Source of the DNA: a virus
DNA length: 64,000 nt
Strand: one strand, 5' to 3'
IMG/VR virus record: IMGVR_UViG_3300035660_000005
Location: 1 to 64,000 of that record
The notes under the pieces are model-generated. The model did not search any database. It saw only the letters and a list, made by a program, of their open reading frames with translations, and had not been told where the DNA came from. Numbering within the stretch: the first letter of the stretch is position 1; each line of letters starts with the position of its first letter. Positions 35,141-63,001 of this stretch are shown in pieces. Position numbers and translations under genes: made by a program.

Positions 35141-36115
35141 TTACGGCTCGACGCTGACGTTGTAAGCGATGGCCGTCGCCTTGGCGACTGCGATCCGCGC
35201 GTCGATACGCGTGGTCACGATGAAGCTCGTGACGCCCTCGCGGGGGTCACGGAACTGCTCCATCTTGATGGCCCGACGGAAGCCCGCGTAGAGGTTCATG
35301 CGGTGGGTAAGCAGAACGAACGACTTGTCCGGACTGCCTGGGATCACCTTCATGAGCGGGACACTCACGATGGAGATCCCCTGGTAGGTGAGCGGGCGGG
35401 TGCCGGATAGGATCTCGTCACCCAGAGCAGTGCCGCGCTCAGCGAGCTGGTCGCGGTACTTCTCCTCAAGGATGGTCGGGACGTAGAAGCGCATGTTCGC
35501 GAGGTCGCGCTTGTACATCGGCGGCAGGCTCTTCAGAAGCGTGCCGAAGACGGTCTGGTAGTCCTGGCCGAGAACGGTGACGTCAGCGGCGTTGTTGCCC
35601 GTCTGCTCGCCACAGCGTGCCAGCCAGCCATCCAGCAGGTTGAGGTAGCCGGTGGTGTCGTCGGTGTTGTCGACGAAGGAGTTGTCCATGTCACCGCAGA
35701 TCATGAGCTCCTCGACGTCGCGACCGACACCCTCCGCCACCATCGAGATGATGGTGTCGGCGAAGCCAGCGCGCTCCACCTGGTCCTCAAGGACCTCGTC
35801 GGTGACTGGGACCTCACCGCGAAGCAGCACGGTGGACATCTCGATGACGCCGGTTGTTGGCTTCACACGATTGGCCGTGTCCAGCCGCTCACCCTCGGTG
35901 CCTGCACGCATGATGCGTGCGGAGAAGTCGATTGTGCTCTCCTGCCACTTACTGGCGTTGTTCATGACGGTGCGAACGTCGGGGAGCATCTTCTGCGGCT
36001 TGATCGCCATCCGCAGGAACGTCTGCACCTGCTCAATGGTGAGCGGAGCCTCGCCTGCGCCGCCGAAGTCGGCAAGCGCCAGCGTGGCCTTGCGAAGCAG
36101 CTCTTCGTTTGTCAT
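35141..36115 (-). CDS. Major capsid protein (HK97 fold, XkdG-like)
   Basis: MTNEELLRKA.., EVLED.VE, RDVEELMICGD, LDGWL, RGTALGD. Confidence 0.88.
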   Translation of the reverse strand: MTNEELLRKATLALADFGGAGEAPLTIEQVQTFLRMAIKPQKMLPDVRTVMNNASKWQESTIDFSARIMRAGTEGERLDTANRVKPTTGVIEMSTVLLRGEVPVTDEVLEDQVERAGFADTIISMVAEGVGRDVEELMICGDMDNSFVDNTDDTTGYLNLLDGWLARCGEQTGNNAADVTVLGQDYQTVFGTLLKSLPPMYKRDLANMRFYVPTILEEKYRDQLAERGTALGDEILSGTRPLTYQGISIVSVPLMKVIPGSPDKSFVLLTHRMNLYAGFRRAIKMEQFRDPREGVTSFIVTTRIDARIAVAKATAIAYNVSVEP

Positions 36116-36607: not shown

Positions 36608-37150
36608 TTACTCTTCGCCAGCCGCCTCCACCTTGGCCCGTAGGTCCTCCACGGCCTTGGCGAGCTGGCTGGCCTTGTCCTCGCTGGTGGCCTCGGAGCG
36701 GTAAATGTTCGCCACCTGCTTACAGAAGTTGGGCCACTCCGCGAGGATCGCCTTCTGCATTCCTGGTGTTGGGTACGCGTTGTCTGGCTTCTTGGCCTTC
36801 ATCTTCTCCCACATGGTCTTCAGGAAGTCGATGAACGCCTTCGGTGCGGGGTATCCGTAGCCGTCCGGCTTCTTGTTGCCGTACTGCTCCTCAAGGAACT
36901 TGAGGATCGTGTCGCAGGCGTCCTTCACTTCCTTCGGGACGTCTCCGTCCTTGAGCTCCGTCAGCTGGGCAGTGAGGTCGTTGGCGGCCTTGATGAGTTC
37001 GGCCTCCTGCTTGATGAGTTCGTCCAGCTCCTCGACGCCGGTGATGTCCGCATTCTTCATAACGGCCCATCCCTCCTCTTCGTTCGCGGAATGATCGACG
37101 CCGGACGTCTCGTCCCAGCGCAGGTTGACAATCTTCTTAGCAGTAGGCAT
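36608..37150 (-). CDS. Scaffold-like protein with N-terminal prohead-protease E-x-S-x-V-D-x-x-AN segment
   Basis: IVNLRWDETSGVDHSAN, then helical coiled coil. Confidence 0.6.
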   Translation of the reverse strand: MPTAKKIVNLRWDETSGVDHSANEEEGWAVMKNADITGVEELDELIKQEAELIKAANDLTAQLTELKDGDVPKEVKDACDTILKFLEEQYGNKKPDGYGYPAPKAFIDFLKTMWEKMKAKKPDNAYPTPGMQKAILAEWPNFCKQVANIYRSEATSEDKASQLAKAVEDLRAKVEAAGEE

Positions 37151-37328: not shown

Positions 37329-37334
37329 CACCAA

Positions 37335-39769: not shown

Positions 39770-40137
39770 GCGCCGGCTTCCTTCTTGATGTACCGACCGT
39801 GCGCGTCGCGCGCAGGGGCACTCGTCACCGGCGCCGGCGTCGCGTCTTCGAGGCAGGGAAGCGGTGTCGGTGTCACTTCGGCCCTGAGCTCATCGATAAG
39901 TAGGTCGGTGGCGAGCTCGACGGACTCGCCGCGCGTCATGGTGGCACCGTCTGTGAGGCGCTCCTGGATGGCTGCCTGGAACGCTGTGTGCGACTTGCCG
40001 TGCAGCACGCCGCCACAGCGGCAGATGCACACCGGCAGGTGAGCGTCCTCGCAAGCTGCCGAACCCTTGGCCGAGAGCGGCCGCTTGTAGACCTTGCTCG
40101 GGTCTCGCTTGATTGCGTAGACTGCTTTCCTCGTCAT
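39766..40137 (-). CDS. Hypothetical protein with CxCxCGGxxHG metal-binding motif
   Basis: CEDA..VCICRCGGVLHG; ATG at 40137 with GGAGG. Confidence 0.55.
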   Translation of the reverse strand: MTRKAVYAIKRDPSKVYKRPLSAKGSAACEDAHLPVCICRCGGVLHGKSHTAFQAAIQERLTDGATMTRGESVELATDLLIDELRAEVTPTPLPCLEDATPAPVTSAPARDAHGRYIKKEAGA

Positions 40138-40313
40138 CGTGCAACCTCCTTCAGGCTGATGACTGCTATTGGAAGACAGCCGGGGCATACGATGCCCTTA
40201 CCCGCGGGTGGTGGGTAGCCGTCGGTGCCGTGGTGAGTGTGCTCGCCGCACAGACAGCAGTCGCCTTCCACGCCGCCGGTAATAGTGTCTTCCTTGCTTG
40301 CCGTTGGTTCCAT
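40134..40313 (-). CDS. Small zinc-ribbon protein (59 aa)
   Basis: Hand-translated; CCLCG..VCPGC. Confidence 0.45.
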   Translation of the reverse strand: MEPTASKEDTITGGVEGDCCLCGEHTHHGTDGYPPPAGKGIVCPGCLPIAVISLKEVAR

Positions 40314-40380
40314 CTCTTCTCTCTACTCCCTTGTCCTCGTTGGGTGTCGACTACCGCATCTACCGGTTGACGCCTGCGCC

Positions 40381-40746
40381 TCAGCCGCTGTTGTAGATGT
40401 CGTCGACCAGTGCGCGCGCTCCGGTCTCGAGCTCGCCCTTGTCGCGCAAGGCAATCATGCGGTTCACGAACTCAGTCTTGCGCACCTCGACGCGGTCGTG
40501 GCGACGCTTCGCCTCGTCGTACTGTGCCTGGACGCGGGCCGTGCGACGCTCGGTCTTGCGTACCGGGTCGTGCGTGCCGCAGTAGGGTTGCTCGCCGAGT
40601 GGTGCGTTCTGGGGATCGGCCAGGTCGAGTCGGGGGTCGTGGCGCATGACCGTGGCGTTCTTCTCGCACCGCGAGGAGTCCCAACCTCGCCAAACCTTCT
40701 CACTGCACTTCACCGGCCGTCCGTTGTTGTCCACTATCTTGGCCAT
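40381..40746 (-). CDS. Hypothetical protein (C..C..CGTHDP)
   Basis: RBS; operon chain. Confidence 0.6.
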   Translation of the reverse strand: MAKIVDNNGRPVKCSEKVWRGWDSSRCEKNATVMRHDPRLDLADPQNAPLGEQPYCGTHDPVRKTERRTARVQAQYDEAKRRHDRVEVRKTEFVNRMIALRDKGELETGARALVDDIYNSG

Positions 40747-40747
40747 C

Positions 40748-41191
40748 CTACTTCACCTCCTCCAGTTTGAGGTCGCTCACTCGCACCTTGCCGAGCGTGT
40801 CGTCTACGAGCCAGTGAACGACGATCTTGTTGCCGCCGCAGGCAGCCGAGTACCCGTAGTTGGCTTGCTCTCGGCTGAAGCCAACGACGATGCCGACCGT
40901 GTCGATGTGCGCGGTCGCGTAGCGGTGGTGGTGTCGAGAAACCTCGCTGGGCCTCAGCACCACTCGGTCGCCCTTCTGGAACCCTGCCTGTCGAGGCCAC
41001 CTCGTGCGCCGTGTGACCACGCCGACACCGTCGCCATCTGCGGCCGTGCCAACTGGTTCTGGCCCGTATTTGTTGGCCACGCGCGCGTCCATTTCGAGTT
41101 CGCGGCCGCGCTCGAGTCCGCACTCGTAGCACTGGCTTGGGTCGTGCTGCGAGCCCTCTCCGCGTGCGATCGGATCGTTGAGCTCAAACAT
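40748..41191 (-). CDS. Hypothetical protein (SH3/KOW-like C-terminus)
   Basis: FQKGDRVVL..GIVVG. Confidence 0.55.
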   Translation of the reverse strand: MFELNDPIARGEGSQHDPSQCYECGLERGRELEMDARVANKYGPEPVGTAADGDGVGVVTRRTRWPRQAGFQKGDRVVLRPSEVSRHHHRYATAHIDTVGIVVGFSREQANYGYSAACGGNKIVVHWLVDDTLGKVRVSDLKLEEVK

Positions 41192-41192
41192 C

Positions 41193-41444
41193 TTAATTGA
41201 CCTCCTCCGTCATGAGCCGCCACCGTCGGGTCACCTCGCCAAGCTCTTCGTTAGTGACCTCGCCGCGCTCCCAACGTTGGCGAGTCTCTTGGAGCTGCCT
41301 GGTCACCTCTTCGAGCGTGGTCGTCTGGCGGAGGGTCTCGCGCTCCTGCCGTCTCTGCTCGAGCTCGCGCTCTTTCACACGGCTCTCCCAGAAGCGACCC
41401 ATCTCCTCCACCTCTGTCCTCCGCCCTTTGAAGTTCCCTGTCAT
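41193..41444 (-). CDS. Hypothetical charged protein
   Basis: First gene after promoter cassette copy 3. Confidence 0.55.
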   Translation of the reverse strand: MTGNFKGRRTEVEEMGRFWESRVKERELEQRRQERETLRQTTTLEEVTRQLQETRQRWERGEVTNEELGEVTRRWRLMTEEVN

Positions 41445-41500
41445 CTCCTCTTACCTCCTACATCTATCGTCCAGGATAGGAAGACAGAGGTCAACGGGTT
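41442..41500 (-). promoter_or_regulatory. Sigma70-type promoter + RBS cassette, copy 3
   Basis: TTGACC-17-GACGAT; near-identical to copies 1 and 2. Confidence 0.7.
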
Positions 41501-41549
41501 TGGCGACCAATTTCCAAGAAATTTTCACAGTCGCTCCGTGGAATAAGCC

Positions 41550-41660
41550 AAGTAAAGAGGGTCTAATATATCCTGATTCCACAGCCTGCCGGACTATACA
41601 GTCGCACGAATGCCGACCGTAGAATCGTGTCCTAGTGCGGCAGGTTCCATTTAGCTGTGA
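41550..41660. repeat. Degenerate intergenic repeat, copy B
   Basis: Matches 15548-15659. Confidence 0.75.
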
Positions 41661-41734
41661 TAGGAAGTTCAGGGAGGTCCACAGCTAAACGGTTGGACGC
41701 TGTCGCCTCTAACATTCGTAAATGAAATCTCAGA

Positions 41735-41803
41735 TATTGCTCTCTAACCCGTTGACTCCTATCTTCCTATCTGGTACAATAGGTGTGGAGGTAGATGGAG
41801 ATG
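41735..41803 (+). promoter_or_regulatory. Sigma70-type promoter + RBS cassette, copy 4 (divergent)
   Basis: TTGACT (41752)-17-TACAAT (41775); shares ATATTGCTCTCTAACCCGTTGAC with copy 2. Confidence 0.8.
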
Positions 41804-43743
41804 AAAGAGAAGAAGTCGACTTGCAAGGCCTGCGGCCACACCGACAAACACTCTTGGCTCTCGGGTTGTCACGCAGGTTGTGGATGCAGCGAGGTCAAGT
41901 AAGATGGCCTCGCGCGTTTACGTGAGCACAAGACAGTTCGAGCTCAGCCACGGACATCGACCGCGCGGCTGCGGTCACTGGGCTTTCACATGCGGCGACG
42001 AGTCCGAGCTTCACTGGTTCAACGGGCTCTACAGTAGGGCCTGCTGGACAGCCAAGCACGAAGCCAAGATCCTCGGCTTCGATCTCGTGACGGCGCAGCC
42101 GTAGTAAAGGAAAGAGGATGGGCAAGTTCCATGGTCAGTGCCTCGAGGACACGGTCTGCAAGCAATGTGGGCAGCGGTGCTGCAAGTGGTGCCGTGAGGG
42201 GTTCCCTCCGTTGTGTCCCGAGTGCGCCTTGATCCAGCGCCGGGAGCGCGCGGTGGCAGCCAAGAGGTTGGCCGCGGCTTACTGGCCGCAGAAGGAGTCG
42301 CCATGACTGAAGCGCGCTGCAAGCATGGCATGATAACGGCCTACTGCGCGTTCTGCCGCAACCCACTGGACACCATCCACCAGGCGGCTGTGCTGTCCGC
42401 TGAGCGCGTGCGCGAGCGGCGAGACAAGCGCTACGCGAGCGCGGACGTTCGCGACCTGTGGAAGGCCATCGGGTTCCTCGCAGCGCGTGCCACGATCTCT
42501 ATCGTAGACCGCGACGAGGATGGAGCCGCCGAGTGTGAGGACGAGTACCAGATCGCAACCGGCGAGACCATCCACGTTCCGGTCAACCCAACGAAGTGGG
42601 GTCACTCGATCACGTTCGAGTTCGAGGCGACCAATTACGAGTTGGCGATCATCGGCTTGCCGCCGTCACTGCTCGAGTTGGCCACGCGCAACGGCACAAC
42701 GCACAGACTACTGAGCAGCACCGCCTTGGGTTGGGCACTCTTCACCTTGGGCTTCCGCGTGGGAGCTCAAGACGTCGACCGCGTTCTCGCCAATGTGCCA
42801 CCGGAGCACTTGGATGTCGTCACCCTCGGCGCTCTCTGCGGTATGGAGAGGTAGGAGAGGTTGCCATGCACAGGCCGCACGCTGTGACAGTCGAGGTCAA
42901 CATCAAGGACAACAGAGCCGAGAAGGGCTTCCGTACCGAAACACGTACGGTGCACATCAGCGCCCGCAACCAGGCCAATGCTGAGCGGGCAGCGCTCAAG
43001 AGGTTCCCAGGGTGCAAGGTCGTCGAGGAGTGAGATGGGAAACATCCGCGAGCCCGACATCCGCGAGCCCTATGTGAGCGAGCTGGTGAACCTCTACCAC
43101 CTGGCTAAGACGGCGGTCGGCGACCAGCGCTCCTCTCGCATGATATGGGCCGCCAAAGCATTCCACAAGGCACATCCTGAGGTGCCCACTATCCAGGCGT
43201 ACAAGCGGCTGGACAAGGCGATAGGCCAAAAGGGGGTACTGAACTGATGATCGGGCTTGTGCTGTTCTGGGTCTTCGCCGGAGTACTTGTTTGGGTAGTC
43301 GGCGCACTGGCTACGACCAAGGTAGCCTACCGTATAGAGTTCATCGACTACTACTCCGATCCAGTTTTCGTCGGCATAGTAGTGATGGCGTGGCCAGGCT
43401 TCGCGTGTGTCGGCGCCGCAGTCGGCGCCGCGTGGCTGCTCGGCCAAGCTGCAATGTGGGTAGACGAGCACAGCGGATGACCGGCTACGACTTCGAAGAC
43501 CGCGGCAAGACGCTCTACTTCCCAGGCTCACACTGGGGCAAGCACAACGAGTTGGCTGTGCATGGGCGTAAGGACGACCTCGTTGTCGTGAAGGTGCCAG
43601 CACTCACTGCCTACATCAGTCGCGGCACCGGGTCACACTACTGCCCAGCCGAGTTCCTAGTACTGCAAAAGCGAGGAGCAAGCGCGATGCCAGGCTACAC
43701 GCACGCAGAGCTTCTCATCGCAATTCCGCTGAGGGTGGTATGA
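41801..43743 (+). other. Chain of small hypothetical early ORFs (41801-41902, 41904-42104, 42118-42306, 42303-42854, 42866-43033, 43035-43247, 43247-43480, 43477-43743)
   Basis: Tightly coupled starts and stops with RBSs downstream of promoter copy 4; several are Cys/His-rich, one has TM helices. Confidence 0.6.
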
Positions 43744-44393
43744 AGTACGACTACGGCTTCCCGCTCATGGTCGACATCGTGCCGGCCACGAAGCCACCTG
43801 AGAAGGACGGCTTCTGGATCCAGCACTACGAGATCACCGAAGAGGAGGTGCACCGACAGCACTGCCGCCTCGACTGGACAATGCGTGGTCTCGAGCCTGG
43901 CACCTACTGCGTGCTACACCAGCGGCGTGATGGACACGACAGTCAGTGGATGTCCGACACTTGGCTCGAACGGTACACCAACGCGGACTTCCTCAAGAAG
44001 GCAACTGGCCACGTCCTTGTCATCGGACTGGGCATTGGCTTGTTACCTGTGGCACTCTGCCGCAAGGTGGATGTGGAGTCTGTCACTGTGCTGGAGATCG
44101 AGCCGCAGGTAATCGCTTTGGTGGAGCCGCACATCCGGCACCCGAAGCTCCGCCCCGTTGTCCAAGGCGACGCCTTCGAGCCACCACCGGCACTGCTCAG
44201 TGTTCGGTACTTCGACGCCGTCTACGCGGACATCTGGGCCGACATCTGTTCCGATAACTGGGAGACAATGAAGCCGTTGCTAGCCCTCTACCGGAAGGCC
44301 GCTAAGAAGGGCGCGCTGGTGACGGCGTGGCTCAAGGATTATATCCAAGCCGAACACAAAGCAACACGGCAACGGTACGGAGGGTACTGGTGA
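43740..44393 (+). CDS. Class I SAM-dependent methyltransferase (spermidine-synthase-like fold)
   Basis: VLVIGLGIG, VLEIE, QGDAF, FDAVYADIW. Confidence 0.75.
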   Translation: MKYDYGFPLMVDIVPATKPPEKDGFWIQHYEITEEEVHRQHCRLDWTMRGLEPGTYCVLHQRRDGHDSQWMSDTWLERYTNADFLKKATGHVLVIGLGIGLLPVALCRKVDVESVTVLEIEPQVIALVEPHIRHPKLRPVVQGDAFEPPPALLSVRYFDAVYADIWADICSDNWETMKPLLALYRKAAKKGALVTAWLKDYIQAEHKATRQRYGGYW

Positions 44394-45799
44394 TGAAGCA
44401 AGTACGGGCAGAAGGTATCCCGAAAAGGGCAGCGCTAATCCCTCTGGGCTCCCCACTCCTGGAAGTTAGGGAAAGAGGTAGACTTGTGAGAACGCTTTGG
44501 CTCGAGCGACCGCCCGCCGGCATCGGTATACAACTGGTCGACCCGCATCGGCAGCAACCTTTCAGTGTGTGGTACCGAGGCCAGATCCACTACTTCTGCG
44601 CGACGCGCACAGAAGCAGAGGGGCTGCTCGCTGAGCTACAAACAAGTCCGCCAGCGGTGGAGGAGCTCGAATGAAGATGGCGATTGACCGCGACTACCTC
44701 ATGTTCGCGCTTACGAACGCGCCGCACGGTGCAGAGATTGACGGCATGCGCATCCTCCGCCGGAGCGGAGACCTGGAGATCACTTGGCACATGCCCGACG
44801 ATCCTATCGCCTGCGGCAAGATCTTCCTCGGGTCGGGAAGAGGCATCGAGGCATTTCCATGGGCAGCTGGAGGGAAGACAGCGGCGCCGCCACCGAGCCG
44901 ACCTCAGACGGTCGAGAGGGGAATGAAGTAGAGATGAAGTCCGAGTCTCTGACGATCCGATACCTCAAGCAGGTCGACAGTCTGCTTGAGCAGGCCTACG
45001 AGAACACAAGTTACATCAAGGTGCGGGCGATCATCACCGGCGCACGTGCACACGTAGCCATGGCGCTCGACAACATCGCCGCGTACAAGGCTGGATCACG
45101 TGGCACCACACAGTAAGCGCCGACGAAATCCAGGCCCCATTGGCCGGCCACCAGAAGACCGCAAGGGCGTCTACGCCAAGCAGAAGGCGAAGGCAGACCA
45201 AGCGGTGCTGGACAAGCTGGCACGTCGACGGATCTTGCTGCCGACCCCCAGGCAGGTCATACAAGTCAACAAGACGAGGAGTGACAAAGCATGAAGGTGC
45301 TGACCGAAGCCCAGATCGTGGACGCGATGCGCAGTTCGTTGAAAGAGCGCCCACTCGGAGCGATGGGCACATGCATCGTGGATGGAGCGCGCGTGATCTA
45401 CGAGCTTGCTATGCGGCTGGGTCACACAACCGCCCGTGAACAGATGGCCTTCGCCAAGCAGTGCATGCCGAAGGACACGTGGAAGGAGCGAGCATGAAGG
45501 AAGAGTCGCACCTCGTCTACATCGTTTGGCGCGACAGCGTCGGCGCACCTCACTACGTGGGCTGCGATTGCGAAGACATACCGGCGACTATCCTGCTAGA
45601 GGGCGTGGCCTGGATCGTGAACGAAACCGAACAGGATCTGGTCGTCGCGGCCTACCGTTCGAACGACGGCGGCTGGATGGATGTAGTCGCGATTCCACGA
45701 TGCGCCATCGAGAAGATCTACCGCATCCAATGGCCCCAACCGGTGCTGCAGGTCGAAGCGATTAAGCTGGATGCAGACTTCCTCGGGGCACCGGACTAG
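44393..45799 (+). other. Chain of small hypothetical ORFs (44393-44674, 44671-44931, 44934-45116, 45100-45294, 45291-45497, 45494-45799)
   Basis: Translationally coupled ORFs; the last converges on the polyprotein with a shared CTAG. Confidence 0.55.
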
Positions 45800-48700
45800 C
45801 GGGTAGTCACGACTGGCTTGCGCTTCGCGAAGCCACCCATACTGAGCCCGCGAATCTGCCCGCTCTTCACGAGACGCCAGCCGGCGTCGTTCCAGAGTAC
45901 GCCCATCCACACGCTGTTGGCGGGAATGGTCGTCTCCTTCGACTTACCGTCAGGAAGTGTGAGCTTTGTCGTGACCTCCCAAGGCCACGCGACGATGTCG
46001 ACCCACTCACCAACGGGGATGATCCCTGCAGCGCCGTGCTGAAGATAGATGCGTCGGTCGCCGGCCTGCACGTAACCCCACTGTCCCTTCTGGAGCTCGT
46101 CTGCCATGATGAACTCGTCGTGGGCGTCGAGCTCTGGGTCACGCGGCATGTTGGTAGCCTTGTAGCAGACACCGAACGTGTACTGCTCCTCAGCGGCCTT
46201 CTCGAGCACGGTATACTCGAACGGCTGGGTGTCGCCACTCTTGGCGACCTCCGCCTGGTCGGTGTGGCTCGCACCGGCAGCAAGCGCGAACATCTGTCCG
46301 TCCAGGCCCACCTCTCCGAACAGGAGCTCGCTCTCGTTCCAGTTGCGCAACAGGTCGTCGTCCACGTTGACAAGTACCAGCTTCTTGACGCCGGCAGACT
46401 TCAGGTCACGCGACGCATCAAGCGCGGACGGCAGTGCCCTGCCGCCTGGTAGGTACTGCGTGTCCTTCCAGCCGTGCGCTCCGGCGAAGACAAGGTCAGC
46501 GTCCTCCACCATGTAGCGGTCGGGGCCAAGTGGTCCCCAGATGATGGTGGTGCGCTTCTCTTCCTTCTCGTCATAGACTGCGATCTCGAAGCAGACCGCT
46601 CCCTCTTCGCCAGCACAGCGGCCATAAGCACCCCATGGGCGCACGTACACACGGTCTTGTGAGTAGCCTGCATCGTAGCCAGTGCACAGCTCCACGCCGA
46701 GTGTCTCTGCCTGCTCCTTGATGTCCGCCAGATGCGTGTTGTACGGGTTGGTGATGAACCACGCGTCCACTGCCTTCGGCAGCTTCTCGAGTAATCCTGG
46801 TCCGCCGTCGAACACGAACGACTTGTTCGCCACCTGAACAAGCAGTCCGTACGGGGAGATGCGCGACTCTACCTGCTCGCCGCCGGTGCCGAGTAGTGTC
46901 ACCTTGATGTCGGCCGCCTTGACCAGACGTGGTCCGTTCTCGTCCAGTACCAAGTCGAACAACGGCGTCGCTTCTGGGTCGCCACGTCGGTCGAACTTCA
47001 CGGCGGGCACAACCCCTGCCGAGCCTGCGATCAGTGTCGCGATGCCCTGAGCCAGACTTGGACTCCAGTACTCGGGTTCGCGGTCAGCCGCCTCGCGCAC
47101 TACCAACTCGATCGTCTTCGAGCCGGCCATCGGCTTGTACGAGATGAACGCTGGGATGACAGTCGGCACGCCCTTGATCTGCCAGACCCACTTGCCGTGC
47201 ACCTGTCGGTACAGTGTGTTCCCGCCACCGTGGTGCTTCGAAACGGTGTCGGACTTGACGATGTTGGGGTGCTCCTCGACCCACTTCTTGGCGCTGGTGA
47301 GTGTCCACTCGTCGTCCGTCGGGAACCTGAGCGCCTGGACTGTGGTGGTCTTCTCCCCCTTGAGCTTCCCAATCACGGCGAATACTCGAGGCTTGGTAGC
47401 CTGGATGGTGATGCGTCGGAACGAGTCCTGCTCGAAGTCACCAGGCTCTCGCACCCTATGTCGAATCTCGTTCTCCGTCGTCTCCCAAGCCTTTGCCAGC
47501 ATCTCCTCGGTCTCCTTCTTTACGACGCCGGCAAGCACCTTCCACTGATCAGCGTCCTCCACTTCCAGTGCCGCCAACAGCGCGTCGCCACTCTTTGGGA
47601 TGTCGATGAAGTACGGACCATGGGCACCATCACTCCACACCAAGTGTGGTTGACGCTTTCCGCGTAGCTCCTTGATGACGTCGGCGAGCTTGTGCTCCTC
47701 GGCGTAGGGCGTGTCGGACTCAGGCTTGCTGACGAGCCACACACGCCGACCACCCATCGGTGCGAACGTGATCTGGTAACGACCCTTCACCTTCGAGCCG
47801 CTCAGGAACACCTCGAACATGTGCTCACGCGCCACACCCAGTTTGTACGTGCCTCTGTCGTACACAAAGAACTTGGCCCATGCCTGTGACGTGGCGCCGA
47901 CCTCCTCCGGCTCCGAGATTGCCGGCTTGCCGACGCCAACGTTCAGCCACTCCGTCGGCTGTGCTAGCTTCCACGAGCCCTGAAGGCTATCGTCTGTCGG
48001 CAGGTTCTGGAGACGGTCGCCACCGGCAGCCTTCACCTCAGACGCCTTGCCCAGGAATGTTGTGAAGCCCCACAGTGCGTCCTCGCCCTGCAAGCGGAGG
48101 TCGCCGTGCACCGAGTGGTCGGTGTCGAGCAGGGTAGACTCACTGGTGCCCTTCGCTTCATCCTCAGTCAGGCCACGCCAGTGGTGATGGTAGACGAAGC
48201 GTCCACGACCCGAGCGTGGCAGTGCGTCGAACCAGCTCTTCTTCCAGTAGGCAGCTACCTCGCCGGCACGGCCCTCTTCCTCGTGTGGGCCTGCCTTCGC
48301 GAGTGAGAACATCAAGCTCTGCGGCACGAACTCGAAGTCGACTACCTTCATCCCTCTGCGCCTTGAGCGTGTAGCGACGCCTGGTACCGACCACAACTCG
48401 GCGTTCGGGTCGCAGTCATTCGACGCCATATGGTAGTCGTCGCAACGCTCGCAGAGGATGATTGTGCTCTTCTGCGTCGGCTCCATCTTCTCCTCGCGGA
48501 GTGCGCCGTAGCGGCGAGCCAGATCGATTGCTTGCTGCACCGTGTACGCTGGTCGGGAGCGATCAGGTCCCTGCGGTGTCGGCTTGCCCCACGTGAGCGT
48601 TCCGTCGCTCAGTAGGATCATCTCCTCCACCGTCACGTTGAGTGTGTCGCCCTCGCCCGCCAACTGTGTCGGCGAGACGAACGTCTTGCCCAGTTTCTGG

Positions 48701-50073
48701 TAGGGCTTGCCGTCGATGTCCACGACACGACCCTTGGGGATTCCCTCGCTCGGTTCGCGCAGTGCACAGTCGTAAGTGTAGCCGTTGGCCACCTTGTTCA
48801 CGCTCAGGACGCGTGCCTTGATCTCCACCGTGCGCTTCGTCTTCGCGTAGTCGTTGGTGGAGCCAAAGCTGTACGGCATGTTCGGGTCTCGCGTCACCAC
48901 ACCCTCGATCGGGAGGTCGCGCCCGCCAGGCCCACCGTAGTTGAGCAGCCGGTTAGCCATCGACTTCAGTGACGCCTCGCTCTTCGCTTCCTGCTGTGGC
49001 AGTGCGACGAAGCGCGCTCCGAGCGTCGAGGCTGCTCGCTTGATCAATGCGTATCGTTCACTGAACGGCTGCTCGTGCACATCGGCCCCGTCGAAGTAGA
49101 CCATGTCGTACAAGAACACGACCGGCGTGGCGCCCTCGAACTTGTTGGCGAGCAACGAGATCAGCTCTGGACGCGCCACGTACTTGCCACCCGAGACCGC
49201 CTGGAGCTCGCCCTCGACCACCATGGACGTCTTGCACTTGCGTAGGGTGTCCATCAGTGAGGGCACGTCGTACTCCTGCTTGGCGTCCTCGGAGTAGATC
49301 ATCGCACGACCGCCAGCACAGTGGATCAGCGCACGTAGTCCGTCCACCTTCGGTGACACCAACACAGTGCCCTGCTTGTCCACAACCTTCGAGGCCCAGT
49401 CGTCCCACAACTCCTTGACGGAGACGAAGTCGGTGTAGTACTTCATGGACGGCTTCTGTGCGGTGTACTTGTCGAAGGGGTTGATGCCGGCGCTCTTGAA
49501 CCGAGGAGCCCTGTTCTCTGGCCCGAACCGAGCACGACGCTTCTCGAGGCTCGCCGCCTTGACGAGCTTCGCCTCGCCAGTCGTAGTGCGCAGCACAAGG
49601 TCGAACACCGGCACGTACTGTCCCTCGTGTGGACCCTGCGGACTGAACAGTAGGTGCAACTCCTTGCCGGTCTTGTCAGGATCGAAGAAGCGACGCAGCA
49701 GTAGCATGAGCGACTCACGGTAGTAGTTTGGCACATCCCCATCTTCGCGGATGAGGATATCCAGGTCGTGGGCAGCAGCCAGTCCCTCGCGCGCAGCGCT
49801 GCCGACCACGCTCACGTAGTCGGGAACCACGACGACGTCGCTGGCCGCCTGCTTCGGGAGCTTCGCCTGATCCAGCCCAGGGTGCACGTTGTGTTCCATG
49901 CCACGCTTCTCCATCTCGGCAACGATGAAGCTGTGGGCATTGACGATGGTCTCGATGGACGCACCGTTCTCCTTGGTGTTGGCGAACCACTGGTGCGTGC
50001 GGCGATGCAGCGAGAGTAGCTCGTCATCCGGTGCCTTCTTCAGGGCAGCCGGGGTGATCTCTTCGAGGGTCAT
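45796..50073 (-). CDS. Multidomain polyprotein: nucleotidyltransferase + ATP-dependent DNA ligase + LigD-like 3'-phosphoesterase + MBL fold + XkdF-type prohead protease
   Basis: VGS..DLDIL; PKVDG, EGEL, YDMVYFDG, EGVV, AKTK; FVYHHH..HGDLRL..YDRGTY..KGRY; LLGTGG..FDGG; DAHDE..LQH..GLSMGG. Confidence 0.85.
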   Translation of the reverse strand: MTLEEITPAALKKAPDDELLSLHRRTHQWFANTKENGASIETIVNAHSFIVAEMEKRGMEHNVHPGLDQAKLPKQAASDVVVVPDYVSVVGSAAREGLAAAHDLDILIREDGDVPNYYRESLMLLLRRFFDPDKTGKELHLLFSPQGPHEGQYVPVFDLVLRTTTGEAKLVKAASLEKRRARFGPENRAPRFKSAGINPFDKYTAQKPSMKYYTDFVSVKELWDDWASKVVDKQGTVLVSPKVDGLRALIHCAGGRAMIYSEDAKQEYDVPSLMDTLRKCKTSMVVEGELQAVSGGKYVARPELISLLANKFEGATPVVFLYDMVYFDGADVHEQPFSERYALIKRAASTLGARFVALPQQEAKSEASLKSMANRLLNYGGPGGRDLPIEGVVTRDPNMPYSFGSTNDYAKTKRTVEIKARVLSVNKVANGYTYDCALREPSEGIPKGRVVDIDGKPYQKLGKTFVSPTQLAGEGDTLNVTVEEMILLSDGTLTWGKPTPQGPDRSRPAYTVQQAIDLARRYGALREEKMEPTQKSTIILCERCDDYHMASNDCDPNAELWSVPGVATRSRRRGMKVVDFEFVPQSLMFSLAKAGPHEEEGRAGEVAAYWKKSWFDALPRSGRGRFVYHHHWRGLTEDEAKGTSESTLLDTDHSVHGDLRLQGEDALWGFTTFLGKASEVKAAGGDRLQNLPTDDSLQGSWKLAQPTEWLNVGVGKPAISEPEEVGATSQAWAKFFVYDRGTYKLGVAREHMFEVFLSGSKVKGRYQITFAPMGGRRVWLVSKPESDTPYAEEHKLADVIKELRGKRQPHLVWSDGAHGPYFIDIPKSGDALLAALEVEDADQWKVLAGVVKKETEEMLAKAWETTENEIRHRVREPGDFEQDSFRRITIQATKPRVFAVIGKLKGEKTTTVQALRFPTDDEWTLTSAKKWVEEHPNIVKSDTVSKHHGGGNTLYRQVHGKWVWQIKGVPTVIPAFISYKPMAGSKTIELVVREAADREPEYWSPSLAQGIATLIAGSAGVVPAVKFDRRGDPEATPLFDLVLDENGPRLVKAADIKVTLLGTGGEQVESRISPYGLLVQVANKSFVFDGGPGLLEKLPKAVDAWFITNPYNTHLADIKEQAETLGVELCTGYDAGYSQDRVYVRPWGAYGRCAGEEGAVCFEIAVYDEKEEKRTTIIWGPLGPDRYMVEDADLVFAGAHGWKDTQYLPGGRALPSALDASRDLKSAGVKKLVLVNVDDDLLRNWNESELLFGEVGLDGQMFALAAGASHTDQAEVAKSGDTQPFEYTVLEKAAEEQYTFGVCYKATNMPRDPELDAHDEFIMADELQKGQWGYVQAGDRRIYLQHGAAGIIPVGEWVDIVAWPWEVTTKLTLPDGKSKETTIPANSVWMGVLWNDAGWRLVKSGQIRGLSMGGFAKRKPVVTTR

Positions 50074-50090: not shown

Positions 50091-51023
50091 TTAGACCGGA
50101 AAGCTCTCCATGGGTGGAAGCCAGCCCTTCGTGTTGGCCCCGATGTCGCAACGGCAGTGGGGGTGCAGTGGCGGGTACTCGCCACCCCACTCGAAGGAGT
50201 TGCCAATCTTGACCCAGCCCTGACCAGCAGCTTCGATACAGTAGTCGCACACCCGAGAGATGGTCGCTGCCGGCGAGCCGGCGGCCGTCAACCAGCGCCG
50301 CTCCTTGATGCCGTTACGCACCATCGTCTCGTGCGCTGTGTTGCCGTAGACGCGGGCCGTCTCTGTACGAGCTACCGTCTCCGCCCACTTGCGTCCAGCC
50401 TCGGGCATCGCGTGCAAGATCTCGGACGTTACTTCGGGCACGGTCTTCGGACGTGCTGGGTTCGCCGCCTCCAACGCGATGCGCGCCAACTCCTCAGCCC
50501 ACGTGCCGGCCGAGTCCTCCAGGTAGCCGGTGACCTGCCCGGACAGTTCTGGGTACAACTCGTGGAACATCAGCTCGGTGTCTGTCCACCTGTAGCCACC
50601 ACCCAGTTGCTTCTCCACGAGCTCGGCCCAAGGTGGCTTCGTTTTCATCCCCAACTGCCGACGGACCGAGCGCTCACCCAGCTCGGCGGTGCTCGCCAAC
50701 TCGGACATCAGTTGACGTGCCGGCTTGTCGAGCTTGAGCTTCTGCTCGATGTGCTTGGCCAGCGCTGCCTTTGCCTTCGCCGGTGCGCGTGCCTCGTCAG
50801 GGAACTTCTCCCAGAGGGCGCGAGCGATGCGCGCCAGCTCTGCTGACGAGACCTGCTCGGCGAGGCCGCCGTAGTACTCCTTCGCCGCTCGTCTTACCTT
50901 GGCCTCAGCCGCGAGCCGCTGCTGGTAGCGTGTCGCCCATTGTCCGCTCGGACTGGCCGCCAACCAGACCGCCTCCAGACCACGGTGCAGTCGCTTGACT
51001 GTGTCCCAGCCTACCTTCATCAA
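50091..51023 (-). CDS. MuF / SPP1 gp7-like head morphogenesis protein
   Basis: VARTETAR, WLTA, VCDYC, PPLHPHCRC. Confidence 0.85.
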   Translation of the reverse strand: MMKVGWDTVKRLHRGLEAVWLAASPSGQWATRYQQRLAAEAKVRRAAKEYYGGLAEQVSSAELARIARALWEKFPDEARAPAKAKAALAKHIEQKLKLDKPARQLMSELASTAELGERSVRRQLGMKTKPPWAELVEKQLGGGYRWTDTELMFHELYPELSGQVTGYLEDSAGTWAEELARIALEAANPARPKTVPEVTSEILHAMPEAGRKWAETVARTETARVYGNTAHETMVRNGIKERRWLTAAGSPAATISRVCDYCIEAAGQGWVKIGNSFEWGGEYPPLHPHCRCDIGANTKGWLPPMESFPV

Positions 51024-52766: not shown

Positions 52767-54254
52767 TTACTCGTCCTCCACTGTCACGTTGCCGTCCACG
52801 ACGCGAGCGTCGTCAGCCATCGCGTCTCCGACCGTCACCCTCGCATCGCCGATCGCCACTCCGCCGGCTACCAACTTCACGTCGCCTACAGCGGCCCGTC
52901 CGCGCATCCGGATCAGTGGTGTCGGGAAGACCAGCGTCAGTGTAACTGGGGTCGGAGTCAGTTCCAGCAGCTTGTAAAGAAGTGGCACTGGCACGTCGAT
53001 CCTAAGCGTCACTGGCTCGGGTTGTACAGTCAGGGCCTTGTAGACCGTCGGCTCCGGTAGTGTGAGCTCGATGCTGACGGCCCCTGGCGTGAGGGTCAAC
53101 GACTTGGAGATCTCGATTGCCGGGAACGTGAGCTCGATTACGACCGAGTCGGGCGCGACGACTCGTGGTTCGTAGACCCAACCGCCCAGTCCCGCGTAGT
53201 GGTAGACCACACCGTTGGTGTTCACGAAGTCGTGTGTGCCGACCTCGAAGTTGGTGGTGAGGAACTCCTGGATGGCGTCAGCTACCGGTTCTGGTGCATC
53301 GTTACATCGTGCACAGGCGTTAGAGGCCATCGTGTCGGTACGGAACATGCACTCGCGCGCAGTCTTCGGATCCTTCAACATCGTGAAGCGTGGGATAACC
53401 TCGCCCAAGGTGACGATCCTGTCGTCTACGCCGTTACCAGGATACGAGCCCTGCTCAGCGATGTTTCCTCCGAGTAGGAGGTAACAGTACTCGGCACCAT
53501 CTTGGTTGAACAGGTGGCTCGTGCCCTCGACCGTGAAGCCGTCGACGTCGAGCGACTTGATGGATGTGCCGACGTAGGGGTCCGAGTCCTGTGCGCCAAA
53601 GAATGCCGCGGCCTCTCCCGCTGCAATGGACAGGGTTCGCCACATCGGTTGCACCCAGAAGCCACCTGTGCTCTTGAAGACTGCTCCGAACTTGGGCGCG
53701 AAGCCCGCTCCTGTGAACGAGCGCAGATCGGTCCCATCCCCGATGTACTTGTCGATTCGGATCCGACTTGGTACTTCTCGCAGTGCCAGAACGTGGTAGA
53801 GCTCACCCGCCTTGTTCGTGGCGATATCGAGCGCAACCGAAAAGCCGTCCACGTCAAGCGAGGTGATGAGGTTCGGATCAAGACCTCCAGCGCCGCCCAG
53901 CCACGCGGCCAAGCCAGCCGGAAAGTCCTTGTGCGAGAGAATCGGTGGCTCGGTAAGAAGAGTACTGTTGACGACGATCACGAACTGAGGTGGGAAGCCC
54001 ACACCGGTAACGTGGTGGTCGCTGTGTCCAGTCCCCACGTAGGTCATCGTCTTGACACCAACAAGTCCACCCACGAACGCGGACGGCAGCACAAGGGGAA
54101 TCGCTACCGGTGCAGGGGTGAGGATCTTCAGCCCGATCCAGACCAACGGCTCGGGCAGTGCGACGCCTATAACAACGGGATCCGGCAACAACGTCAGCGT
54201 CGCCACGCCGCAAGGCAGCATCTCGATAAGCCGGCGAGTCGTACCTCTAGCCAT
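52767..54254 (-). CDS. Fibre-like structural protein with three Y-x-G-x-G beta repeats
   Basis: YVGTG/YIGDG/YPGNG repeats with GF.P.F and SLDVDGF.V; Pro/Val-rich stalk repeats. Confidence 0.6.
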   Translation of the reverse strand: MARGTTRRLIEMLPCGVATLTLLPDPVVIGVALPEPLVWIGLKILTPAPVAIPLVLPSAFVGGLVGVKTMTYVGTGHSDHHVTGVGFPPQFVIVVNSTLLTEPPILSHKDFPAGLAAWLGGAGGLDPNLITSLDVDGFSVALDIATNKAGELYHVLALREVPSRIRIDKYIGDGTDLRSFTGAGFAPKFGAVFKSTGGFWVQPMWRTLSIAAGEAAAFFGAQDSDPYVGTSIKSLDVDGFTVEGTSHLFNQDGAEYCYLLLGGNIAEQGSYPGNGVDDRIVTLGEVIPRFTMLKDPKTARECMFRTDTMASNACARCNDAPEPVADAIQEFLTTNFEVGTHDFVNTNGVVYHYAGLGGWVYEPRVVAPDSVVIELTFPAIEISKSLTLTPGAVSIELTLPEPTVYKALTVQPEPVTLRIDVPVPLLYKLLELTPTPVTLTLVFPTPLIRMRGRAAVGDVKLVAGGVAIGDARVTVGDAMADDARVVDGNVTVEDE

Positions 54255-56630: not shown

Positions 56631-58199
56631 CTAGGCTCCTCGGTTGTCTTCCTGACTGGGGCTCTCGTTCCCACCTGGAATCTCTCCCGTCTCCATGACC
56701 TCGCGGACGACCTCGTCGACCTGCTCCAGTCGAGTGAGCACAGCGTCCTGTGTGCGCTGCATCGCAGCCATCATGTCGACACTCTGAGCCATCGCCATCG
56801 CCATCCCTGCGCCAGCAGCTCCCTTCGACTGGAGGTACTCGGCGAGTGTCACGTTCATGTCGTCACGGGCCGGCAGACCGAGCTTCTCGCGACCCTCGTT
56901 CAGCGTGACCATGTTAGTGCGCACAAGGTTCACGGCGTTGGCGATGTCCGCCGTCTCGTCGCTGACGTCAGGCGCCTCGAACTCTACGCGCCACGCCACG
57001 GTCTCCTCATTGATCCGTCGTGCTCGAGCGTACTCGGTACGGATGAACCGTCCAAGTCGGTCGCAAAGAATGGACTGCGCCGGAGTCACGACGGCGTTCT
57101 TGTAGATGCGGTTGATGGCCACGCTGACGTTGCCACCAAGCATCCCGCGCTGGACGGTACCCAATCTGTCAGGAGGCATACGATGTGCCTCGAGGATTCG
57201 TGCGTCGGTGACGTCCATGAGCTTGGTGAAGTGCATGTCGTTCTGTACGGCCGTCAGTCGTTCGACCTTGAACTGCGCGGTGCCCGACAACGGCACCATG
57301 AGGTTACGGTGCGGGTCCTTGTGCTGGACCTTGAGCTGCTCTTCGAACTCGTCCATGAACGTCTCGATCTCTGCGTCCTTGCCGGTCAGTCCCGACACGA
57401 CGAAGATGTAGCGAGGCTCTCTCGCGTTGGAGAAGAACTTGATGTTATAGTCTCTCGCTGCGATTGCGAGCGTAATGTAGCCCACGCCCGAGATGTAGCC
57501 TGGAATCCCGTACCACGAATTGCGTCGACTCGTCTTCACGAACACCAGCATCTCGTTGGCGAGCTTGTCGAAGCCTGTGCCTGGGGGCGCTGTGCGACCG
57601 TTGCTTGACAGTACTGCCACGTCACGCAACGGCTGTCCAGTGGACACGTCCACTCCCCACCGCTTGAACCAGACCTGCCGCGTGTTGCGGATCTGTACGT
57701 AGAACATACCGTTCCGGTGTGCACGGACTGTGTGTGCCGGCACGTGGTACAGTCGTTGCACCACGCCATTGATGTCGCGTGCTGCCTCGAACATGCCCCA
57801 CCCGACGGTCTCGTAGTCAAGCCAGACGGCGTTCAACAGTTCGATGAACGTCTGCTGCTCGGTGATCTCGTCCAGCCAGTTGTAGATGTCGGCTTCCTGT
57901 TCAGGAGGCGCGCTCTCGTGTTCGGGCACCAGCTTCGGCCCATTGGCGATCACATCCATGGCCTTCTGTTCTAGCGAGGCCGAGTGGGGAGGGTGGGACT
58001 CTGCAAGGAGCACAAGCTGCTCCATGGAGTAGGGTGGCCTCTGAATTGCGACACCGTAGCTGGCGATCTGCGAGAACGGATCCTCTAGCAACTGCTTGGA
58101 GGGGAACTCGGACAGGCGCTCCAACTCTTCGCCGCCGTAGCCTCCGATGATGCGTGCCTTGAAGATCCTGCTACCCTGGGCCTCTGTTCGTGCGACCAT
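56631..58199 (-). CDS. Portal protein (PBSX XkdE-like)
   Basis: LYHVPAHTVR, WYGIP, YNIKFFSN..P, NDMHF, AHRMPP..LG, TLNEGREKLGL. Confidence 0.9.
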   Translation of the reverse strand: MVARTEAQGSRIFKARIIGGYGGEELERLSEFPSKQLLEDPFSQIASYGVAIQRPPYSMEQLVLLAESHPPHSASLEQKAMDVIANGPKLVPEHESAPPEQEADIYNWLDEITEQQTFIELLNAVWLDYETVGWGMFEAARDINGVVQRLYHVPAHTVRAHRNGMFYVQIRNTRQVWFKRWGVDVSTGQPLRDVAVLSSNGRTAPPGTGFDKLANEMLVFVKTSRRNSWYGIPGYISGVGYITLAIAARDYNIKFFSNAREPRYIFVVSGLTGKDAEIETFMDEFEEQLKVQHKDPHRNLMVPLSGTAQFKVERLTAVQNDMHFTKLMDVTDARILEAHRMPPDRLGTVQRGMLGGNVSVAINRIYKNAVVTPAQSILCDRLGRFIRTEYARARRINEETVAWRVEFEAPDVSDETADIANAVNLVRTNMVTLNEGREKLGLPARDDMNVTLAEYLQSKGAAGAGMAMAMAQSVDMMAAMQRTQDAVLTRLEQVDEVVREVMETGEIPGGNESPSQEDNRGA

Positions 58200-62109: not shown

Positions 62110-62289
62110 TCAGTCCTGCTTCGGGTGGCGAATCGCGTGCAGTTCGAGCAGCTGGGCCTCAGCGCGGATCTTGCGCGCCTTGGCCTGGATCCACGCTACG
62201 GTGGCACCGATCAGTCCCACAGCGTTCAGGAACACCAGGGTCGCTGCGCAGGCCATAAGCACCTGGAACGGTAGGAAGTCATACCACAT
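62110..62289 (-). CDS. Small membrane protein (59 aa)
   Basis: Hand-translated; one TM helix. Confidence 0.4.
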   Translation of the reverse strand: MWYDFLPFQVLMACAATLVFLNAVGLIGATVAWIQAKARKIRAEAQLLELHAIRHPKQD

Positions 62290-63001
62290 CCGTCACCTCG
62301 CTTTGGAGTGCTGCGAGCTCAGTAAGCAGCTCAGGCGACGGTGGCTCGTAGCCCTCGTCACCGGGCTCAAGGAAGCGCTTGTGCCGACCGAGGTAGTACA
62401 GGTCGTCCGAGGTCACGATGCCATCAGCAAGACCGTACCGGACAGACTCCTCCGCGGACAACCAGAGCATGCGGTCGATGTCCGCCAACAACTCGTCGCG
62501 AGAGCGCTTCACGCCGCACTCGATGTAGCAGTCCACCATGGCGTCGCGGATCTTGTTCATCTCCTGCTGGCACAGCTCCAGGTCCCTCGAGTCCACGGAG
62601 AACTCCTGTGCGTTGATCCTCGGTAGGTGCAGCATCAGTCGGGCATGCGGCAGTAGTAAGCGGCGTCGACCAGCCGCGAAGATCAGCGAGGCCATGGACG
62701 CGCACGACATGCCGATGGTGGTCACTGGCGCCGGCGATGCACGAATCGTGTCGTACAGAGTCATGCCGACGTCGATGGACCCACCCTCACTGGCGACGAA
62801 CAGCACGATGGGATCGCTGCTCTCCAACGCAAGCGCAAGCAGGCTCTCGAACACTCGGGTCGGCGAGTACATGTCCTGCCGTGCCGTGTAGCTTAGCATA
62901 GGACCCACAAGGAACAAGGCACGTCGGCTCGTGCCGACGATCTCGGCTCCCCAGGCAAGCTCGTTGTCGCGGATTCTGTCGGGACGTGGTCTCACAAACA
63001 T
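62279..63001 (-). CDS. clpP: ClpP-like protease
   Basis: SEGGS, LYDTI, CASMAS (Ser), LMLHLP (His), WLSAEESVRYGLAD. Confidence 0.85.
   Translation of the reverse strand: MFVRPRPDRIRDNELAWGAEIVGTSRRALFLVGPMLSYTARQDMYSPTRVFESLLALALESSDPIVLFVASEGGSIDVGMTLYDTIRASPAPVTTIGMSCASMASLIFAAGRRRLLLPHARLMLHLPRINAQEFSVDSRDLELCQQEMNKIRDAMVDCYIECGVKRSRDELLADIDRMLWLSAEESVRYGLADGIVTSDDLYYLGRHKRFLEPGDEGYEPPSPELLTELAALQSEVTDVV

Follow-up and report, generated by a model that had tools for sequence, protein, structure and literature searches.

The 64,000-nucleotide stretch of DNA analyzed here (the window) comprises positions 1 to 64,000 of IMG/VR virus record IMGVR_UViG_3300035660_000005, a linear record of 78,297 bases with a CheckV completeness of about 73%. 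An open reading frame (ORF) on its minus strand, at 45796..50073, belongs to the polyvalent proteins, in the subset that ends in an assemblin-like peptidase (Iyer et al. 2017, PMC5512222). As is usual in this group, it joins disparate enzyme domains, lies in a virion-gene setting and closes with such a peptidase. On balance we lean toward a reading in which the ORF encodes a cargo protein built on a prohead protease. Its modules would be packaged, freed and delivered with the DNA, and would act before phage genes are expressed. The active cargo is predicted to follow a LigD-like logic with parts of other ancestry: a minimal nucleotidyltransferase (NTase), a ligase of the archaeal/Lig1 type and a divergent Mn-dependent phosphoesterase (PE).

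An initial annotation of this DNA had described the ORF as one polyprotein, and the frame is indeed open over 1425 amino acids (aa). The domains that it listed are found where it had placed them, but the active kit is smaller than it had proposed, because a second NTase-like copy and a metallo-β-lactamase (MBL)-like domain lack catalytic motifs. The polyprotein and its parts, from the N terminus to the C terminus, are as follows.

45796..50073, minus strand: whole polyprotein ORF (P0001), 1425 aa, a single open frame without stops
49864..50073, minus strand: N-terminal helical hairpin, residues 1-70, with helices 16-36 and 41-56 in the AlphaFold2 (AF2) model at a predicted local distance difference test score (pLDDT) of about 95
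49579..49842, minus strand: minimal Pol-beta-type NTase-like domain NT1, residues 78-165, with a GS...DxD motif
48484..49476, minus strand: ATP-dependent DNA ligase, adenylation and oligonucleotide-binding (OB) domains, residues 200-530 (Pfam PF01068)
48274..48471, minus strand: ligase-PE linker with a Cys cluster (CxxC...C), residues 535-600, read from the sequence
47509..48270, minus strand: LigD-type 3'-phosphoesterase fold with a conserved C-terminal extension, residues 602-855, by AF2 fold match
47239..47490, minus strand: small domain (ENEIRHRVREPGDF...), residues 862-945, by identity to an S78-associated domain
46927..47196, minus strand: degenerate second NTase-like copy NT2, residues 960-1049, by homology to NT1
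46279..46917, minus strand: degenerate MBL-like domain, residues 1053-1265, by transitive homology
45799..46209, minus strand: XkdF-type (S78_2) prohead serine protease domain, residues 1289-1425 (Pfam Peptidase_S78_2)

A protein database comparison shows that an identical 1425-aa protein is already on record. A colinear relative of 1481 aa (P0003), from another assembly, is 52% identical over 100% of the length. Chimeric assembly of the ORF, which the initial annotation had named as a way in which its proposal could fail, is therefore very unlikely. Profile and fold searches match the ligase, the PE and the XkdF domain to their respective profiles or folds. On the whole polyprotein, Pfam returns no family at E≤1 beyond the ligase and XkdF matches. 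When five segments are scanned along with the whole polyprotein, the NTase (0.047) and the PE (0.03) come up below threshold only, and the small domain, NT2 and the MBL-like domain have no match at all.

Prohead protease and head gene context

The C-terminal domain is an XkdF-type head protease, as initially annotated. Pfam Peptidase_S78_2 matches residues 1289-1418 with 27.8 bits (cut-off 24), and the catalytic triad is conserved in 127 relatives (D1316, 100%; H1346, 99%; S1411, 98%). XkdF fusions that carry a tail align with S78 proteases (hhalign 92.8%, E 4e-7), and their His and Ser fall on the S78 catalytic motifs. Neither Peptidase_S78 nor S49 is found in the record. The head genes that surround the polyprotein are listed here.

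58548-59957, minus strand: large terminase (TerL), upstream of the polyprotein
56631..58199, minus strand: portal protein (phrog_12, 1.5e-33; Pfam Phage_portal, 4.8e-18)
50091..51023, minus strand: MuF-like head morphogenesis gene (PHROG head morphogenesis / minor head protein, 1e-13)
36608..37150, minus strand: scaffold-like gene g180, with an N-terminal strand (E-x-S-x-V...A-N) like that found after the catalytic Ser in S78
35141..36115, minus strand: major capsid protein candidate (phrog_1623, 1.6e-68; Pfam Phage_capsid weak)

The gene order is TerL-portal-...-MuF-polyprotein. The MuF-like gene, which scores 29.4 bits with Pfam Phage_Mu_F (cut-off 29.6), ends 17 bases before the polyprotein starts. 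Relatives with enough flanking sequence carry the portal, (MuF), the polyprotein, one scaffold-like gene and the major capsid protein on one strand (L007, L015, L025, L027, L028, L045), and the capsid candidate of the window is syntenic with theirs. This arrangement bears out the initial placement of the ORF directly after MuF, in the slot of the prohead protease.

The protease fold appears to be divided between two genes. In the window, the XkdF domain ends 14 residues past the catalytic Ser, and the strand that should follow is absent in cis. The scaffold-like gene g180 aligns with the gene directly after the polyprotein in 23 relatives, and its residues E14, S16, V18, A22, N23 and K32 fall on conserved columns. 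In most loci this downstream gene starts with L.DL..EVSLVD..AN.KKRF and continues into a helical scaffold-like body with a YGYPAP motif. The strand segment is fused to the end of XkdF in six natural cases, among them L015, L025, L045 and L049, and in this fused form it aligns to the last strand of S78 proteases. Since the XkdF domain stops so soon after its Ser and a matching strand exists in g180, it appears that the scaffold-like protein supplies in trans what the protease fold lacks.

Candidate cleavage sites lie mostly at the boundaries between modules. The ORF contains eight copies of the pattern [LIVMA][LIVMAE]K[AS], compared to 1.65 ± 1.27 in shuffled sequences, and none of 2000 shuffles reaches eight. 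Seven of the eight sites lie at domain junctions (residues 170, 591, 859, 938, 1050, 1276 and 1290); the one at residue 591 is a candidate cleavage motif, LAK|A, within the ligase-PE linker. Across the family, 52% of proteins have the motif immediately ahead of XkdF (background 6%), and 27% have it after the NTase (background 5%). It is also present in g180 and g145 and absent from MuF and the portal.

A metagenomic family with a constant core and variable inserts

In a phmmer search of 1.84 billion cluster representatives, the PE module matches 350 proteins with E≤1e-3, and a limit of E≤1e-30 leaves 180. The first figure counts clusters at 50% identity. The relatives used for conservation are at or below about 50% identity. 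Among 183 PE-bearing proteins, the NTase is found in 111, the ligase in 113 and XkdF in 125. Where XkdF is present it is located at the C terminus, a median of 36 aa after the PE, and most of the other proteins end right after the PE in a manner that resembles truncation.

Comparing cargo between relatives, as the initial annotation had suggested, reveals a constant core and swapped inserts in hundreds of sequence clusters. The NTase-ligase-PE-XkdF core is maintained, and its catalytic residues are 96-100% conserved (101-182 relatives). Such conservation means that the three cargo enzymes are under strong purifying selection. The inserts include family-4 uracil-DNA glycosylases (UDGs), Dam-type and S-adenosylmethionine (SAM)-dependent methylases, LigT-type 2H phosphoesterases, MBL-like domains and a second ligase. 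A shorter form, [UDG]-PE-XkdF, is common.

A search for related loci finds 84 in IMG/VR, and a scan of 185,579 species genomes finds only five, all of them in metagenome-assembled genomes (MAGs). Large as it is, the family is known from metagenomic sequence alone. In a tblastn search of 50,697 phage genomes, the only parts found are XkdF, in Arthrobacter and Microbacterium phages, and the ligase, in ANMV-1. BFVD holds only one significant viral protein with the PE fold.

Some members are built differently. On one ENA contig of 9221 bases, the train of domains is split into an 824-aa protein (P0004; helix-NTase-ligase-PE) and a 497-aa protein (P0053; NT2-MBL-XkdF). The break is located at the position of the small domain of the window, and is either a real split or a sequencing frameshift. 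P0016 (2038 aa) and P0065 have two ligase domains. The N terminus of P0016 is a Mu-like_Pro (prophage I protein) domain, such that protease- or scaffold-related modules occur at both of its ends.

DNA ligase

The ligase is an ATP-dependent DNA ligase of the archaeal/Lig1 type, with a predicted sealing activity. Pfam DNA_ligase_A_M (PF01068) matches residues 229-413 (E 1.2e-13; 51.7 bits, cut-off 26.2). Conservation across 101 relatives is 99% for K242 of the KxDG motif, 100% for E390-G391 and 98% for K411, and the motif residues K242-V-D-G245, E390-G391 and K411/K413 taken together are conserved at 82-100%. The family profile matches archaeal ligases in the PDB (3gde, 1e-25) more closely than the ligase domain of Mtb LigD (1e-13). 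An alignment of profiles to 2cfm spans residues 269-528 of the query and 240-502 of the chain, which extends past the adenylation domain and covers the OB domain, and the OB domain is read from this alignment. The initial description of an ATP-dependent ligase with a probable OB fold is confirmed. It had also been called the only ligase of the window, and it is the sole ligase in the entire 78-kb record, where an NAD-dependent ligase is likewise absent.

The linker between the ligase and the PE may be a decayed zinc ribbon, to judge from its remaining Cys cluster. A full CxxC...CxxC zinc-ribbon-like motif occupies the corresponding position in P0003.

LigD-type phosphoesterase

The identity of the PE domain is settled by fold searches and by the comparison of family profiles, as direct sequence-profile matches are weak. 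The AF2 model of residues 600-860 has a pLDDT of 94.4. The top seven Foldseek matches are all LigD PE structures (prob 1.0), and VIA aligns 123 of 124 residues with 3P43 at Z 13.5 and a root-mean-square deviation of 2.3 Å, while the next unrelated fold has Z 3.4. When the PE family profile is compared with a canonical LigD_N profile, built from ten sequences out of bacterial genomes, hhalign gives 96.8% and E 3.8e-10 over 108 columns. Sequence profiles of the module reach only E 0.14-0.9 in the PDB, and all of these matches are to LigD PE entries. Pfam LigD_N stays below threshold on the PE of the window (15 bits, cut-off 31.1). Among 50 relatives it picks up 20 (best 2.9e-5), and a candidate member from a MAG reaches 29.2 bits.

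Canonical PEs bind Mn with two His and an Asp, bind phosphate with an Arg and a His, and position a water molecule with a Tyr (PMC3082917). Alanine changes of five charged PE residues abolish activity, and these include H51A and H78A in the archaeal PEs (PMC3082917). The phosphate-binding His corresponds to PaePE His84 and CkoPE His51, and the Tyr to Tyr88 and Tyr55 (PMC3082917). In 182 relatives of the polyprotein, H631, H656, D658, R660, K702 and W709 are all 100% conserved. The first four of these align with the canonical Mn ligands His-His-Asp and the phosphate-binding Arg. The two metal histidines are separated by a helical insert of about 20 residues. Residues that are invariant or nearly so in this family specifically are K702, E754 and H751.

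The second half of the active site is altered. P706 occupies the Pro position of the canonical H-P-x-x-Y turn and W709 that of its Tyr, so that an invariant Trp stands in place of Tyr. The canonical His is replaced by Gln705 (Q in 78% of the 182 relatives, H in 4%, or 7/182); the alignment has low confidence exactly at the His, and the mapping of Gln705 is derived from adjacency and a predicted short helix. The initial claim of a LigD-type phosphoesterase therefore stands for the fold, the Mn site and the Arg, and does not extend to the canonical His and Tyr. We take the PE for an active enzyme of a divergent clade, which may act on another substrate or by another chemistry than LigD.

A 693-aa frame in a Dehalococcoides MAG (L089, G001:C3:70280-70612) scores 29.2 bits over positions 6-105 of the 107 in LigD_N. 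Its length fits UDG-PE-XkdF members. If it belongs to the family, it is the member nearest to canonical PEs.

N-terminal hairpin and nucleotidyltransferase-like domains

The domain NT1 contains the motif of a minimal Pol-beta-type NTase. It fits the pattern hG[GS]x9-13Dh[DE]h with V90-G91-S92 and D103-L-D105, and these residues are nearly invariant in 109 relatives (G91, D103, D105 and also G147, 100%; S92, 96%). The AF2 topology is b1-GS-a2-b2(DLD)-a3-b3-b4; G91-S92 falls after strand 1 and before helix 2, and strand 2 carries D103-L-D105. Pfam NTP_transf_2 matches with E 0.047 in the query and is seen in 4 of 50 relatives. Foldseek gives no match at E≤1e-3, and its weak matches are enriched in minimal MNT-type NTases (1no5, prob 0.82). 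In a protein atlas, clusters that carry NTP_transf_2/Polbeta score 0.90. Pfam, Foldseek and the atlas all point to an NTase, and none of the three is significant by itself. Of the initial claim of an N-terminal Pol-beta NTase, the GS...DxD motif is upheld by its conservation and the fold match is suggestive only.

Of 183 relatives, 106 have the helical hairpin that precedes NT1, and its residues E41, E53 and R57 are conserved at 97-99%. A weak match to the C-terminal half of the Pfam Pyr_excise profile is seen in 7 of 50 relatives (best 1.8e-5). Structural matches of the hairpin in VIA are generic L29-like hairpins only. Such helical hairpins fill both VIA searches of the N-terminal model, which give no reading on the NTase fold.

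NT2 is a second copy of NT1, as the initial annotation had recognized (hhalign to the NT1 profile 91.9%, E 7e-7). Its catalytic residues have not survived: the GS loop is deleted and DxD has become I-E-L, leaving neither aspartate. The copy looks inactive.

MBL-like domain and small domain

The MBL fold named in the initial annotation is recovered by homology, and its metal-binding His motifs are missing. The domain matches segments of P0005, P0006 and P0016 that bear Pfam Lactamase_B_2 with BLAST E values of 1e-11 to 5e-57. Residues 1042-1419 are 36% identical to residues 1156-1532 of P0005, which scores 37.5 bits for Lactamase_B_2 (cut-off 27). There is no direct Pfam MBL match to the query, and the assignment is transitive only. 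The HxHxDH motif is absent in all nine aligned MBL-like copies of the family, and the copy in the window also lacks the H..H, GGH and HIG motifs that relatives keep. The domain looks inactive. The idea that it serves as an active Artemis-like nuclease within the polyprotein was rejected because the metal motifs are lost.

The small R.R.PxDF domain of the initial annotation is real. No Pfam family matches residues 862-945, which are 58-78% identical to a domain inside or beside the Peptidase_S78 domain of five HK97-type prohead proteases (among P0054-P0059). Its sequence, W-E-E-T-E-N-E-I-R-H-R..P..F..DSFRR.., recurs next to Peptidase_S78 either at the N terminus or between the protease and a scaffold-like tail. 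This looks like a mobile module of prohead proteases that has not been described before.

Proposed function and alternative explanations

Loading of the polyprotein into the capsid is predicted with good indirect support. The initial annotation had suggested that the protease carries an end-repair toolkit into the head, and procapsid loading fits the conserved triad, the position in the protease slot and the swapping of cargo. The small domain shared with S78 prohead proteases adds to this support. The later steps of the initial proposal, ejection with the DNA and its circularization or repair, are more speculative. An assemblin-like peptidase, when part of a polyvalent protein, always stands at its C terminus and is likely to process the protein as virions assemble (PMC5512222). 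In the proposed mechanism, the XkdF domain (D1316, H1346, S1411) would act as an HK97-like serine protease and assemble into the procapsid together with the scaffold and the capsid proteins. It is likely to be tethered by the strand at the N terminus of g180, which would complete the protease fold in trans. The N-terminal train of 1290 residues would thereby be pulled into the head, where the protease would cleave it at hydrophobic-hydrophobic-Lys|Ala/Ser junctions. The released modules would remain in the head alongside the DNA and travel with it into the next host. There, 3' ends would be cleaned by the PE and possibly extended by the NTase, before the ligase seals ends or nicks. We infer encapsidation, cleavage, retention, ejection and substrate alike.

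A more specific version of the proposal is offered tentatively, as a possibility that we rate below the general one. A family of uncultured phages would use the split protease fold to pre-load an end-healing and sealing machine, made up of the minimal NTase, the ligase and a PE with a remodeled active site. Cut free at the junctions and ejected with the genome, it would reseal or circularize the DNA (or, in relatives, methylate it or remove uracil from it) ahead of all phage gene expression, as a counter to host nucleases at the protein level. Phages have been described as depending on end joining for genome circularization (Pitcher et al. 2006, as cited in PMC7719229).

Several observations weigh against delivery of an active kit. 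No member of the family is known from virions, by proteomics or by structure, and a 155-kDa cargo in many copies would compete with DNA for head volume. The tblastn search of 50,697 phage genomes finds no PE-bearing or full-length relative, so that no cultured phage in this collection is a carrier. Two components of the kit are uncertain: the NTase fold of NT1 has no significant match, and the chemistry of the PE may differ because Gln705 replaces a His that is essential in canonical enzymes, next to an invariant Trp709 in place of Tyr. The junction pattern was defined after the sites had been seen, which makes the shuffle statistic generous. XkdF is not the only gene with a protease fold in the record, which also encodes a ClpP homologue. 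Finally, as the sole ligase of the record, the polyprotein may have a replicative or packaging-time role.

This last point keeps two alternatives alive. The train might be loaded into the procapsid and act there on the DNA of the phage during packaging, by sealing nicks and cleaning ends or, in relatives, by removing uracil or methylating, before it is degraded or expelled without delivery. The evidence for procapsid loading fits this scheme equally well, the junction motifs fit digestion, and the prohead proteases and scaffolds of HK97-type phages normally exit the head after maturation. We nevertheless regard it as unlikely: the enzymes would need a supply of ATP and SAM inside the head, the methylases and UDGs carried by relatives are better suited to protecting incoming DNA, and known packaged enzymes such as T4 Alt, P1 Dar and N4 vRNAP are ejected (PMC5512222). 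Alternatively, the ORF could be a late polyprotein whose enzymes work in the cytoplasm on replicating or concatemeric DNA, with fusion to a protease providing co-expression and release rather than encapsidation. Beyond the sole ligase in 78 kb, this idea draws on the split pair P0004 and P0053 and on relatives without a terminal XkdF, although most of these appear to be truncated. It must contend with a protease that is C-terminal and adjacent to the PE in 125 of 183 proteins, with a gene that is always located between portal/MuF and scaffold/capsid, and with the general observation that prohead proteases become active only on assembly. We consider it quite unlikely.

Two further explanations have much less to recommend them. 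The kit could repair RNA instead of DNA, for example tRNAs cut by host anticodon nucleases. Some relatives have LigT/2H phosphoesterase domains, PHROGs label the XkdF fusions of Arthrobacter phages 'RNA ligase', and PE enzymes work on 3'-ribonucleotide ends (PMC3082917). This seems improbable given that Pfam detects no 5'-kinase domain in the polyprotein, that the ligase profile matches DNA ligases and that the co-occurring cargo (UDG, Dam) is directed at DNA. An assembly chimera or a run of decayed, functionless domains would account for the degenerate NT2 and MBL-like copies, and can be given hardly any credence. The chimera was rejected on the strength of colinear relatives, including the 52% identical protein from an independent assembly. 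Inert stuffing was rejected on the strength of catalytic residues in NT1, the ligase, the PE and XkdF that are 96-100% conserved.

If the cargo is packaged and delivered as we favor, these phages would enter the cell already equipped with enzymes for DNA repair and protection, a counter-defense that acts before transcription. The repertoire of ejected phage proteins would then extend past RNA polymerases, ADP-ribosyltransferases and Dar proteins. Three aspects are of interest independently of delivery: the natural, modular loading of capsids with enzymes by fusion to a prohead protease, an end-repair triad that resembles LigD but has different parts, and a PE clade with an altered active site.

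Other features of the window

Three more features lie in or near the head genes.

62279..63001, minus strand: ClpP-family protease homologue (PF00574, E 4.7e-34, 113 bits)
52767-54254, minus strand: 495-aa ORF between the portal and MuF
37151-45795: 8.6-kb block between the polyprotein and g180, which are neighbors in relatives

The ClpP homologue is four genes upstream of the terminase, outside the portal-to-capsid slot. It could be a second head protease or an auxiliary gene. The 495-aa ORF has weak tail-fiber and DUF7483 matches, an odd finding at this location. The 8.6-kb block looks like an insertion into the head operon. It carries plus-strand ORFs at 40237-45799 and minus-strand ORFs at 37736-40188, mostly unannotated, and a Pfam scan of ten of its ORFs gives a weak SAM-methyltransferase signal only (43740-44393).

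Comparison with known systems

Bacterial DNA ligase D (LigD), which combines PE, LIG and POL domains for non-homologous end joining, is a close known system. Both proteins place a 3'-phosphoesterase fold, an ATP-dependent ligase and a nucleotide-adding domain in one polypeptide, and the Mn ligands (His, His, Asp) and Arg of the LigD PE are conserved in the phage PE. In the phage protein, however, a Pol-beta-type NTase of about 90 aa takes the place of the archaeo-eukaryotic primase (AEP) polymerase, and the domain order differs. The phage PE has Gln and Trp for His and Tyr and adds the 20-aa helical insert between its metal histidines. Its ligase profile is closer to archaeal ligases, and Ku (PF02735), a companion of LigD, is not found in the 78-kb, ~73% complete record.

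The stand-alone enzymes CkoPE and MbaPE (3P43 and 3P4H; PMC3082917) are the best structural matches, with Z 13.5 and 13.2 and 117-123 residues aligned. They share an eight-stranded barrel and a metal site with the phage domain. Their essential His51/His78 corresponds to Gln705 in the phage PE, which also adds an N-terminal helix, the insert and a C-terminal extension of about 55 aa and is always fused upstream of a protease.

T4 Alt, P1 DarA/DarB, N4 vRNAP and MuF-fused effectors are packaged in the head, delivered with the DNA and act before phage expression (PMC5512222); for the present protein, such behavior is predicted. These proteins are loaded by capsid-targeting peptides, MuF or the portal and not by fusion to the maturation protease, and none of them is a ligase/PE set. 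The window domain has the His/Ser catalytic motifs of HK97-type Peptidase_S78 and PBSX XkdF (Peptidase_S78_2) and, like them, its place in the head operon. Unlike them, it ends 14 residues past its Ser, has its next strand in a separate scaffold-like gene and follows 1290 residues of N-terminal cargo.

The nearest precedent is the polyvalent proteins (PMC5512222), in which unrelated enzyme domains also reside in one polypeptide whose gene lies with virion genes, with the protease last and processing during assembly predicted. The general idea was thus anticipated in 2017. Beyond that work, a literature search on XkdF and protease-ligase fusions found nothing specific, and neither this cargo set nor the tethering arrangement was found described; the text of the 2017 paper does not mention a LigD-type PE, an ATP-dependent DNA ligase or XkdF. 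What distinguishes the present family is a fixed NTase-ligase-PE-XkdF core with variable inserts, along with a protease whose last strand would come from the scaffold gene.

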